Positions 1-1,018 are shown, counted from the first letter of the stretch. The stretch: 1,018 nucleotides of DNA from Naegleria gruberi (GCA_000004985.1 GG739614.1), one strand, 5' to 3'. Notes: generated from the letters alone by a model not told the origin. Numbers and translations: made by a program.

Positions 1-287
1 ATATGACCATATTTTTGACTGAAATTTTTTAAAATTTTTGTCCTCACTTCATTTCTAGCCGATTTTAAAATAACCAAATACTGTAAAACATTATATTCCT
101 CTTGTAATATATGCATAAAATCGATTAAAAAAATTAACCCGTTTCTACCCAATATATTCTTTATAATAGACCTGTATACTCAATTATACTACCATTAAAT
201 CGTCTAAATCGAATGTAAAAAAAGTGAATTCCGAAAGTCACTATATTTATAATCAAATTAAATCTATGGACACCGGTCTCTTAATCG

Positions 288-305
288 GAATCGCCTGAAT
301 CGCCC
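288..305 (+). repeat. 9-bp tandem direct repeat GAATCGCCT-GAATCGCCC inside G+C island A
   Basis: Exact 8-mer GAATCGCC at 288-295 and 297-304. A third TGAATCGC lies at 376-383, and AATCG also occurs at 283-287. Confidence 0.7.
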
Positions 306-312
306 TCCTTCA

Positions 313-323
313 TTTTTTTTTTT
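313..323 (+). repeat. T11 homopolymer tract, present in copy 1 only
   Basis: It reads CA-T11-GAAAACG. The equivalent stretch in copy 2 (684-696) is CACTTCTATTTGT, the same length but heteropolymeric. Confidence 0.9.
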
Positions 324-488
324 GAAAACGTTAGCTACGCGATACATTCATTGATTATGCAATTACGGAACCGTCTGAATCGCAGCCGTTCGGGAGTTGG
401 GTACCTCAAAAAATTGATATTATTATATATCATTGTATAGTCAAATAACTATTATATCAAAAATGGCTAGAACCCAGCCGTTCAAAAG

Positions 489-516
489 TTGACAATGATT
501 TTTATGAATATATATC
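489..516 (+). promoter_or_regulatory. Sigma70-like promoter candidate: TTGACA (489-494), 16-bp spacer, TATATC (511-516). An A-rich stretch lies upstream and TG sits at 505-506
   Basis: The -35 is a perfect consensus. The -10 matches TATAAT at 4 of 6 positions. -10-like hexamers are common in AT-rich DNA, so specificity is low. Confidence 0.3.
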
Positions 517-660
517 TATCTATTATCTATATAACCTTTTGTAAAGATTTTATTTTATAGAAATTGATTTTTGAGCATGTTTCAAACATAAAAAAAGTGA
601 ATTCCGAAAGTCACTATATCTATAATCAAATTAAATCTATGGACACCGGTCTCTTAATCG

Positions 661-678
661 GAATCGCCTGAATCGCCC
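661..678 (+). repeat. 9-bp tandem direct repeat GAATCGCCT-GAATCGCCC (copy-2 equivalent)
   Basis: Identical to 288-305 at the +373 offset. The third TGAATCGC lies at 749-756. Confidence 0.7.
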
Positions 679-861
679 TCCTTCACTTCTATTTGTGAAA
701 ACGTTAGCTACGCGATACATTCATTGATTATGCAATTACGGAACCGTCTGAATCGCAGCCGTTCGGGAGTCGGGTACCTCAAAAAATTGATATTATTATA
801 TATCATTGTATAGTCAAATAACTATTATATCAAAAATGGCTAGAACCCAGCCGTTCAAAAG

Positions 862-889
862 TTGACAATGATTTTTATGAATATATATC
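862..889 (+). promoter_or_regulatory. Copy-2 equivalent of the promoter candidate: TTGACA 862-867, TATATC 884-889. It faces the right flank
   Basis: Same sequence at the +373 offset. It sits about 60 bp upstream of the ATG at 950, which opens a frame running off the window. Confidence 0.3.
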
Positions 890-947
890 TATCTATTATC
901 TATATAACCTTTTGTACAGATTTTATTTTATAGAAATTGATCCTTGA

Positions 948-974
948 GCATGTTTCAAAAACCCAAAAACATGC
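948..974. other. Inverted repeat / potential hairpin: GCATGTTT (948-955), 11-nt loop, AAACATGC (967-974)
   Basis: Perfect 8-bp complementary arms, but only 3 G:C pairs. Neither strand has a T-run after the stem, so it is not a canonical intrinsic terminator. It spans the right boundary of repeat copy 2. Confidence 0.5.
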
Positions 975-1018
975 ACTTCGGGTCTCTGACTTCATGGTTG
1001 TCTATTTGCGGAACTGTT
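950..1018 (+). CDS. Possible 5' end of a flanking ORF (MFQKPKNMHFGSLTSWLSICGTV...), open to the window edge
   Basis: ATG at 950 with an in-frame stop upstream (TGA at 938-940). The frame is open through 1018. There is no recognisable Shine-Dalgarno sequence and only 23 codons are visible. This call is mutually exclusive with the minus-strand call below. Confidence 0.15.
   Translation, partial: MFQKPKNMHFGSLTSWLSICGTV
955..1018 (-). CDS. Possible 3' end of a minus-strand ORF entering from the right (...TVPQIDNHEVRDPKCMFLGF*), stop TGA = complement of 955-957
   Basis: Minus-strand frame open from 1017 down to 958, ending at the stop complement of 955-957. Only 20 codons are visible and I recognise no motif in them. 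Confidence 0.15.
   Translation of the reverse strand, partial: TVPQIDNHEVRDPKCMFLGF

Follow-up and report, generated by a model that had tools for sequence, protein, structure and literature searches.

The window, a stretch of DNA of 1,018 nucleotides and 31% G+C, belongs to a circular extrachromosomal rDNA element (CERE) of the Naegleria gruberi type and lies in its non-ribosomal spacer (NRS). In it, a tandemly duplicated unit carries G+C-rich islands that contain two short motifs, termed here box 1 and box 2. Box 2 is conserved as far as Naegleria fowleri, and the boxes are therefore probably protein-binding control sites, with a probable role in rRNA transcription or plasmid replication. 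That they are functional elements which act at the DNA level and bind protein is, as judged from sequence, likely. An earlier note on this DNA had proposed either an array of directly repeated protein-binding sites, of a kind typical of response regulators, iterons or partition proteins, or a structured RNA. The general idea of repeated binding sites holds up, as the motifs are conserved, orientation-biased, enriched in the spacer only and free of substitutions among the unit copies; the setting of a bacterial regulon, a plasmid Rep iteron array or a partition locus does not.

The rDNA circle

To what does the window belong? Among metagenome contigs, a scan for a two-part pattern picked out L009 (VFQN01005947.1), with 99% identity to the window but one unit only. 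Opposite the window's plus strand, L009 encodes eukaryotic LSU and 5.8S rRNAs and the 3' portion of an SSU rRNA, together with a group I twin-ribozyme intron with a GIR1 branching ribozyme and a His-Cys box homing endonuclease. Homologues of this intron endonuclease are named from Naegleria italica, N. gruberi, N. andersoni and N. jamiesoni. A second, endonuclease-like open reading frame downstream of the LSU gene led to two JGI metagenome contigs, L010 and L011; this NRS endonuclease-like protein (P0002) is AUH25140.1 of N. gruberi.

By BLAST, positions 14248-13231 of L010 match the whole window (1-1018), duplication included, with 99.0% identity. This places the window at -1014 to -2031 relative to the 18S 5' end, i.e. 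1.0-2.0 kb upstream, where the rRNA sense strand is the minus strand of the window. The sequence of L010 recurs after 13,799 bp (SSU at 1463 and again at 15262, window positions 1-449 matched twice), and the contig therefore represents a circle. The SSU, 5.8S and LSU genes are found on this contig together with the window, as they are on L009 and L028. The window is contiguous with a single 18S-5.8S-28S cistron on a circle of ~14 kb that has Naegleria-type linked genes. The published N. gruberi EGB element (PMC5805870) has a like layout, at ~14 kb and 40% G+C, and likewise carries an endonuclease-like open reading frame downstream of 28S and a G+C-rich one upstream of 18S (Mullican et al. 2018, MG699123; Maruyama & Nozaki 2007, AB298288).

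About 125 bp past the left end of the window, the spacer jumps from ~24% to 65-70% G+C. A boundary box, GTTCATCGACCCCCCC, lies here just outside the window (L010 14372, -891 from 18S) and is conserved between lineages; its longer reading is GTTCATCGACCCCCCCrAAATGTCTGA...GTTCCTAACCTTGCGGAC. This AT-to-GC boundary is probably the start region of a putative 5' external transcribed spacer (ETS). The identity pattern between L010 and L028 is a mosaic one, which suggests recombination.

The window has no credible open reading frames. A 35-aa frame across the junction has no record by exact look-up. Two further candidates were dropped because the locus is a nuclear rDNA spacer: a small peptide in genetic code 4 (MDTGLLIGIAWIALLHFFFWKR, 266-334) and, at the left edge, the start of a divergent gene (MHILQEEYNV...), whose frame has only 43 aa.

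The repeat unit and its boxes

What the earlier note had called the 'unit' is 373 bp long and tandemly duplicated, and its two copies differ in 10 places. The features are listed below (coordinates, strand, description).

1..215 (-): promoter-proximal AT-rich spacer, ~125-340 bp upstream of the boundary box GTTCATCGACCCCCCC
216..588 (-): 373-bp unit, copy 1, nearer the rRNA genes; islands 1-3 with 7-20% G+C between them
276..304 (-): island 1 core, box 1 alone; sense reading GGCGATTCAGGCGATTCCGATTAAGAGAC, two CGATTC half-sites 9 bp apart
357..401 (-): island 2 core, full composite (box 2, then box 1); sense reading CCCAACTCCCGAACGGCTGCGATTCAGACGGTTCCGTAATTGCAT
465..491 (-): island 3 core, box 2 alone; sense reading CAACTTTTGAACGGCTGGGTTCTAGCC
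589..961 (-): 373-bp unit, copy 2, distal; 10 differences from copy 1, of which 9/10 are outside the islands
649..677 (-): island 1 core of copy 2 (box 1), motif matches
730..774 (-): island 2 core of copy 2 (box 2 and box 1), with a left-flank change, T398 to C771
838..864 (-): island 3 core of copy 2 (box 2), motif match
962..1018 (-): unique spacer distal to the repeat; in relatives another composite follows ~20 bp past the window end (L009 1679-1712, L010 13179-13212)

The three G+C-rich islands, which the earlier note had described, are real, with 53%, 47% and 47% G+C against 7-20% between them, and its short motifs recur exactly. GAATCGCC is present at 288-295 and 297-304, with a 9-bp period, and again at 661-668 and 670-677. 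CTGAATCGC is found at 295-303 and 375-383, and again from 668 and 748; CAGCCGTTC is found at 383-391 and 475-483, and again from 756 and 848, and in both settings it follows GAACC as had been noticed. This recurrence is far above chance, as dinucleotide-preserving shuffles give means of 0.00-0.02 (0.02, 0.01 and 0.00 for the three motifs in turn).

These 8-9-mers belong to longer imperfect repeats, e.g. CGGAATCGCCTGAATCGCC (286-304) and CGGAACCGTCTGAATCGCA (367-385) agree at 16/19 positions. Does the recurrence merely reflect the duplication? The relatives with a single unit, L009 and L028, have two copies of each motif, plus a composite ~200-300 bp further from 18S; the duplication is thus not the only source of recurrence. 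The unit is present twice in the window, in L010 and in L011, and once in L009 and in L028; copy number probably varies by unequal crossing-over.

All three islands represent a single composite cis-element: island 2 has it complete, islands 1 and 3 have one half each. Box 2 is CAACTYYYGAACGGCTG, often extended by GGTTnTAG. Box 1 is GCGATTCAGRSGATTC, with the consensus GCGATTCAG-RSGATTC-YSTTAAT, in which the half-site CGATTC occurs twice at a spacing of 9 bp. On the rRNA sense strand, the full composite of island 2 is CCCAACTCCCGAACGGCTG followed by CGATTCAGACGGTTCCGTAATTGCAT; island 1 has the right half (box 1), GCGATTCAG-GCGATTC-CGATTAAG, and island 3 has the left half (box 2), CAACTTTTGAACGGCTG-GGTTCTAGCC. 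Further copies of box 1 read (G)ACTTGCGATTCAGAGGATTCTCTTAATCC.

A scan of the 13.8-kb circle found nine copies of GCGATTCAG, eight sense and one antisense, all in the NRS, and five of GAACGGCTG, 5/5 of them sense. The copies of both are confined to the promoter-side 3.3 kb of the NRS, and neither sequence was found in the 5.8-kb rDNA of the L010 circle. Within the 30 nt 5' of the box, runs of five or more A or five or more T are enriched (T5+ at 12/30 sites and A5+ at 13/30, with a background of 16.5%); 3' of these 30 sites they are not. As A-runs are enriched as much as T-runs, this is a general A/T tract signal and not a T-specific one; a T-run acting as a terminator release element upstream of the box was rejected for the same reason.

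Conservation between species

Upstream spacers of other Naegleria plasmids were retrieved by way of the intron endonuclease and the endonuclease-like open reading frame (L015, L018, L021, L022, L025 and L028). L015 has an N. andersoni/jamiesoni-type endonuclease and L028 is N. gruberi EGB-like. The N. fowleri TY CERE was taken from Supplementary Data S1 of PMC13398248 as PDF-derived text, in which small errors are possible.

Homologues speak for the binding-site idea of the earlier note, as the motif is conserved in other Naegleria plasmids and box 2 reaches as far as N. fowleri. The box 2 core AACGGCT recurs in the N. gruberi-type and N. andersoni-type plasmids, in two further lineages and in N. 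fowleri. When the upstream spacer of L010 is compared with those of L015 and L021 by BLAST, only islands 3 and 2 align, besides the G+C-rich putative ETS. Island 3 is the sole piece of non-transcribed spacer that can be aligned with L015 (87.5% over 40 nt); L021 also aligns with three short stretches of the distal NRS, downstream of 28S. An unbiased k-mer scan of six upstream spacers gave 11 G+C-containing 10-mers that occur in three or more lineages, where 50 shuffles gave 0. Of these 10-mers, nine represent box 2 and two the boundary box.

Occurrences of AACGGCT by strand are as follows.

L028: 3 sense, 0 antisense
L015: 3 sense, 1 antisense
L018: 2 sense, 0 antisense
L021: 6 sense, 2 antisense
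N. fowleri TY NRS: 11 sense, 2 antisense
L010 rDNA (one plasmid tested): 0 sense, 0 antisense

First-order Markov simulation predicts 0.35-0.9 occurrences per region, with a maximum of 4. Pooled over five lineages there are 25 sense and 5 antisense sites, which are not independent events because many copies sit inside larger duplications.

The extended form of box 2, CAACTYYYGAACGGCTR...CTAG, is common to three lineages, and L021 has at -1194 an orthologous full composite, TCCCGAACGGCTGCGATTCAGGCAATCCTGTTAATGCA. The position relative to the AT-to-GC boundary is conserved as well: the nearest sense box 2 lies 513 bp upstream of it in both L010 and L028, 432 bp in L021, 362 bp in L015, ~326 bp in L018 and ~485 bp in N. 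fowleri. In a comparable position, N. fowleri has a 196-bp tandem repeat with the related boxes AAACGGACTTCGTTTCTAGAC and GAACGGCTCGTTTCTAGGC in each unit; its boxes are spread across ~5 kb and are not clustered. Two of the upstream fragments, both of them short, lack exact box 2: L022, with 2.2 kb, and L025, with 1.4 kb, which has only a diverged variant, CAACTCCCGGACTTGTCC, twice, 81 bp apart. Sense copies of box 1 (CGATTCAG) are present in L021 (four) and L018 (one) as well, but the N. fowleri TY CERE has none.

Constraint is also seen among the unit copies themselves. Seven copies from five sources have 17 variable columns, and only one of the 17 (position 398) falls inside the islands, which make up 43% of the unit (binomial P ~0.001, or ~0.03 with the 313-322 cluster taken as one event and edge columns dropped). 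The boxes are free of substitutions in these copies.

A possible role as RNA polymerase I spacer elements

What might the boxes do? By position and by analogy, we tentatively favour the reading that they are polar RNA polymerase I (Pol I) spacer elements upstream of the rRNA promoter. This preference rests on the biased orientation of the boxes, on their conserved location just upstream of where the promoter presumably lies, and on the AAC in the core. The boxes would be double-stranded DNA sites for a sequence-specific nuclear or nucleolar factor, with CAACTCCCGAACGGCTGCGATTCAG as a candidate target of sequence-specific binding; the invariant AAC-containing core is compatible with a Myb-type site. 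The array may act as an upstream enhancer, or as a promoter-proximal terminator or barrier, a role served elsewhere by Myb-like factors (TTF-I, Reb1). It could then stop read-through transcription around the circle and organize promoter chromatin. The A/T homopolymer tracts on the 5' side of the boxes may help to exclude nucleosomes, as in the nucleosome-free regions formed by yeast Reb1 and poly(dA:dT), where such an arrangement of tracts keeps the factor site accessible.

Reiterated spacer elements upstream of rRNA promoters are a well-known type of feature. Pol I terminators and barriers that bind Myb-like factors include the mouse Sal box (TTF-I), the yeast Reb1 site and the Xenopus T3 box GACTTGC. 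These boxes measure 10-18 bp and are reiterated and orientation-dependent; a copy stands upstream of the promoter, T-rich or A/T tracts precede the boxes, and the core has an AAC, as in Myb sites. The Naegleria boxes resemble them in size, in being reiterated and biased in orientation relative to rRNA transcription, in the A/T tracts and in the AAC of the core, and one copy is a putative promoter-proximal one. Three copies of box 1 are in addition preceded by (G)ACTTGC, the Xenopus T3 heptamer, a 7-mer match that may be due to chance.

There are also differences. The Naegleria boxes have no sequence identity with the Sal box or the Reb1 site, and no copy lies within 3 kb downstream of 28S. In L010 the first box 1 after the 28S 3' end is at 3.4 kb and the first box 2 at 5.9 kb, so the boxes are badly placed as primary terminators. 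Known promoter-proximal terminators lie at a distance of roughly 170-250 bp. In five lineages a sense box is 326-513 bp upstream of the AT-to-GC boundary, which is the presumed start; this wider spacing counts against a role in Pol I transcription, as do the missing exact box 2 in L022 and L025 and the missing box 1 in N. fowleri.

Spacer repeats of another type, the 60/81-bp repeats of Xenopus and the 240-bp repeats of Drosophila, copy part of the gene promoter. They resemble the Naegleria unit in being tandem, variable in copy number and directly upstream of the promoter, but the Naegleria unit lacks similarity to the promoter-proximal region (local alignment score 22, against 20.6 +/- 2.8 for shuffles). 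It is therefore not a spacer-promoter copy, and this interpretation was rejected.

Replication, remnants and other explanations

The boxes might instead be elements of the replication origin, i.e. repeated sites for an initiator or ORC-associated protein beside easily unwound AT-rich DNA; this is the main rival reading, which we regard as somewhat less likely than a Pol I role. The NRS must contain a single origin, and the passage of PMC13315211 that cites Mullican (2019) has one mapped to a 2.1-kb NRS fragment of N. gruberi. Conservation between species is rare among NRS elements, and box 2 shows it. Boxes and stretches of 7-20% G+C follow each other in turn, and the boxes are flanked by A/T tracts, so that conserved, reiterated elements stand beside AT-rich, easily unwound DNA in a duplicated domain. 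The copy number of the unit differs between near-identical plasmids, and a ~360-bp repeat of N. australiensis is also variable (PMC10586121). Duplication of the unit could on this reading give a replication advantage within a population of ~4000 copies.

The architecture resembles that of Tetrahymena thermophila, whose rDNA minichromosome carries type I elements in two tandem 430-bp domains (1 and 2) of its 5' non-transcribed spacer. Both systems have extrachromosomal rDNA with a tandem duplication of ~400 bp upstream of the rRNA promoter and length variants between alleles, and in both, what is conserved in a fast-evolving spacer is a set of short, reiterated elements that all point the same way. 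They share no sequence similarity, and the type I elements are A/T-rich whereas the Naegleria boxes are G+C-rich. A role in replication was shown by experiment for the Tetrahymena elements; the Naegleria boxes are known from their sequence. Several points weigh against an origin function. The N. fowleri boxes are dispersed over ~5 kb, and the boxes lack sequence similarity to known origin elements. The yeast ARS consensus WTTTAYRTTTW does not occur in the window, nor does L010 contain it. L012, an EGB-like fragment, has exactly two matches, both on the strand antisense to the rDNA, in agreement with what was published for the N. gruberi CERE; these two matches of the EGB-like lineage are far away, near the endonuclease-like open reading frame.

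Could the boxes be functionless remnants of older spacer repeats, kept alike as a multicopy plasmid undergoes duplication, gene conversion and concerted evolution? In published plasmids, repeats make up 18-65% of the NRS (PMC5805870, PMC7714845), many copies of the boxes are inside larger duplications, and the L010/L028 mosaic points to recombination. Concerted evolution within a species, however, does not explain a core of 8-17 nt that is kept across spacers which do not otherwise align, and it leaves the consistent orientation and the conserved distance to the boundary without explanation. Substitutions among unit copies, moreover, avoid the islands. Remnants are thus an unlikely explanation.

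A more specific proposal is that boxes 1 and 2 are iterons of the CERE origin that are bound by the plasmid's own His-Cys box homing-endonuclease-like protein. The open reading frame for this protein, downstream of 28S, is open with a dN/dS of ~0.5 across three lineages. The proposal is very doubtful; if true, a domesticated homing endonuclease would be the initiator or nicking protein of a eukaryotic nucleolar plasmid.

A structured non-coding RNA, the second option of the earlier note, or a spacer transcript of which the islands would form the stems is most improbable. G+C islands within AT-rich DNA do resemble stems, and the rRNA-sense strand has two weak sites of hairpin plus T-run (479-465 and 243-217), but the islands have no Rfam family, no stable fold and no conserved hairpin. 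Rfam models gave no match at E values up to 10 except a chance one to the microRNA family mir-154 (E=1.9). Neither a tRNA nor an organellar tRNA was detected, ARAGORN giving a single, meaningless, permissive mitochondrial match. The unit folds no better than shuffles do (z = -0.9 and -0.3 for the two strands). The hairpin adjacent to box 2 is not retained in other lineages while the sequence is kept, and intrinsic-terminator hairpins on the rRNA-sense strand were rejected because the hairpin is not conserved. No hairpin is common to 29 distinct box 2 sites (z -3.1 to +1.4); a primary sequence that is invariant at these sites without a common hairpin points to recognition of double-stranded DNA.

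Bacterial-type sites (iterons near a rep gene, response-regulator or partition-protein sites), suggested by the direct-repeat form of the motifs and by nothing else, can be set aside because of genomic context: the locus is the spacer of a eukaryotic extrachromosomal rDNA circle, contiguous with 18S, 5.8S and 28S genes and free of credible open reading frames, BLAST against plasmid and phage collections gave no match, and exact-pattern scans of prokaryotic genomes and viral contigs gave chance 18-20-mers only, in DNA of 49-64% G+C.

Significance and relation to published repeats

All rRNA genes of Naegleria, including those of the lethal N. fowleri, are carried on this plasmid of ~4000 copies, and its NRS is described in the literature as 'poorly conserved between species'. 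Three things were not found in the available literature: the conservation throughout the genus, N. fowleri included, of a box that has as its core the 9-mer CAGCCGTTC of the earlier note, the orientation bias of this box, and its conserved distance from the transcribed region. The conserved box is a concrete and cheaply testable candidate for promoter, terminator or origin function. It could also aid the construction of stable episomal vectors, of which none is so far available for N. fowleri.

Repeats of 371 bp and 34 bp have already been published for N. gruberi, without an explanation. The repeats of the EGB plasmid were reported as '34 bp to 371 bp', with no function assigned and without cross-species comparison (PMC5805870). 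As far as lengths can be compared, these sizes equal those of the BLAST self-matches here, 371 nt for the unit and 34 nt for a box-bearing 34-mer. The closest relatives of the window, L010 and L011, differ by 9-19% from the EGB-like lineage in the endonuclease-like region.

Haplotypes of the repeat unit and possible plasmid recombination

One segment of the 373-bp spacer unit (window 313-322 and 686-695) exists as two haplotypes, a T11 run and CTTCTATTTGT. The T11 run is present in unit copy 1 of the window and in the proximal copy of L010 (the 13,799-bp circle); L028, an N. gruberi EGB-like plasmid, carries it in its only unit. The CTTCTATTTGT form is shared by copy 2 of the window and the distal L010 copy, and another relative, L009, has it in its only unit. 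How did the two-copy form originate? Given this split by copy position, it looks like the product of an unequal crossover that joined both single-copy haplotypes, or else a different copy would have been lost in each single-copy form.

Divergence over the whole alignment of L010 and L028 is mosaic: identity is 95-100% in the rDNA and from -2600 to -1 relative to the 18S gene, and goes down to 57-90% at -3600 to -2800 and downstream of 28S. Such a pattern would fit either exchange of segments among plasmid lineages by recombination or constraint that differs along the molecule.

The plasmids also vary in intron content. A twin-ribozyme group I intron, consisting of a GIR1 branching ribozyme and a 254-aa His-Cys box endonuclease, is present in the SSU gene of L009 (13282-14434) and is absent from L010 (15262-17281 compared) and L028. 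Intron-plus and intron-minus plasmids are near-identical, with 97-99% spacer identity over the window region (L009, L010 and L028), and the rDNA of L010 and L028 is 100% identical.

Motifs of the spacer

A conserved boundary box, GTTCATCGACCCCCCCrAAATGTCTGA..GTTCCTAACCTTGCGGAC, marks the precise point, upstream of 18S, where AT-rich sequence gives way to GC-rich sequence:

L010 14364-14420, boundary box, outside the window and approximately 116-172 bp past its position 1
L028 ~2700, boundary box
L021 (a more divergent Naegleria lineage) ~4965, boundary box
L015 (likewise more divergent) ~6385, boundary box

An invariant TTTGAC lies ~70 nt upstream, and the two elements jointly represent a candidate Pol I start region. 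The box was looked for at the N. fowleri boundary and was not found there. L015 is a 14.2-kb rDNA plasmid contig of Naegleria andersoni/jamiesoni type (JACCDN010942333.1) from NCBI assembly GCA_013558295.1, which has >900,000 contigs; the amoeba was presumably an associate or contaminant of the organism sequenced.

Several copies of box 1, the motif with two CGATTC half-sites, have (G)ACTTGC at their 5' side (L010 10696-10715, 12834-12853, 12617-12636 and 13152-13168). GACTTGC is the heptamer of the Xenopus Pol I terminator T3, and the match may be due to chance.

Matches to the yeast ARS consensus are as follows:

L012 (N. gruberi EGB-like fragment) 1158, antisense to rDNA
L012 2868, antisense to rDNA
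L028 10774

L012 has exactly these two, and two antisense matches are likewise given for N. gruberi EGB (PMC5805870). Scans of L010 and L009 gave zero matches; thus, even close lineages do not share these matches.

Open reading frames

An endonuclease-like open reading frame (PF05551) is located 3' of the 28S gene:

L010 7861-8916
L012 361-1395
L014 986-2029
L009 6341-7408

It was termed 'likely a pseudogene' in an earlier publication. The frame is open over 344-355 codons in three lineages, at dS up to 0.62, and dN/dS is 0.48-0.56; together these suggest a functional plasmid-encoded protein.

The G+C-rich putative transcribed spacer carries CCAACCAGCC-type microsatellite repeats (L010 14597-14691) and a 178-aa reading frame called as a gene by metagenome pipelines (L010 14535-15071). 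The latter has no Pfam match and is probably a compositional artefact. A smaller putative frame lies in the stretch that separates the repeat from the boundary box:

Window 117-1, continuing to L010 14262, minus strand (rRNA sense), putative 43-aa open reading frame (MHILQEEYNVLQYLVILKSARNEVRTKILKNFSQKYGHIYQ)

A 41-aa gene call in L011 (334-459), a close two-unit relative, falls at about the same place.
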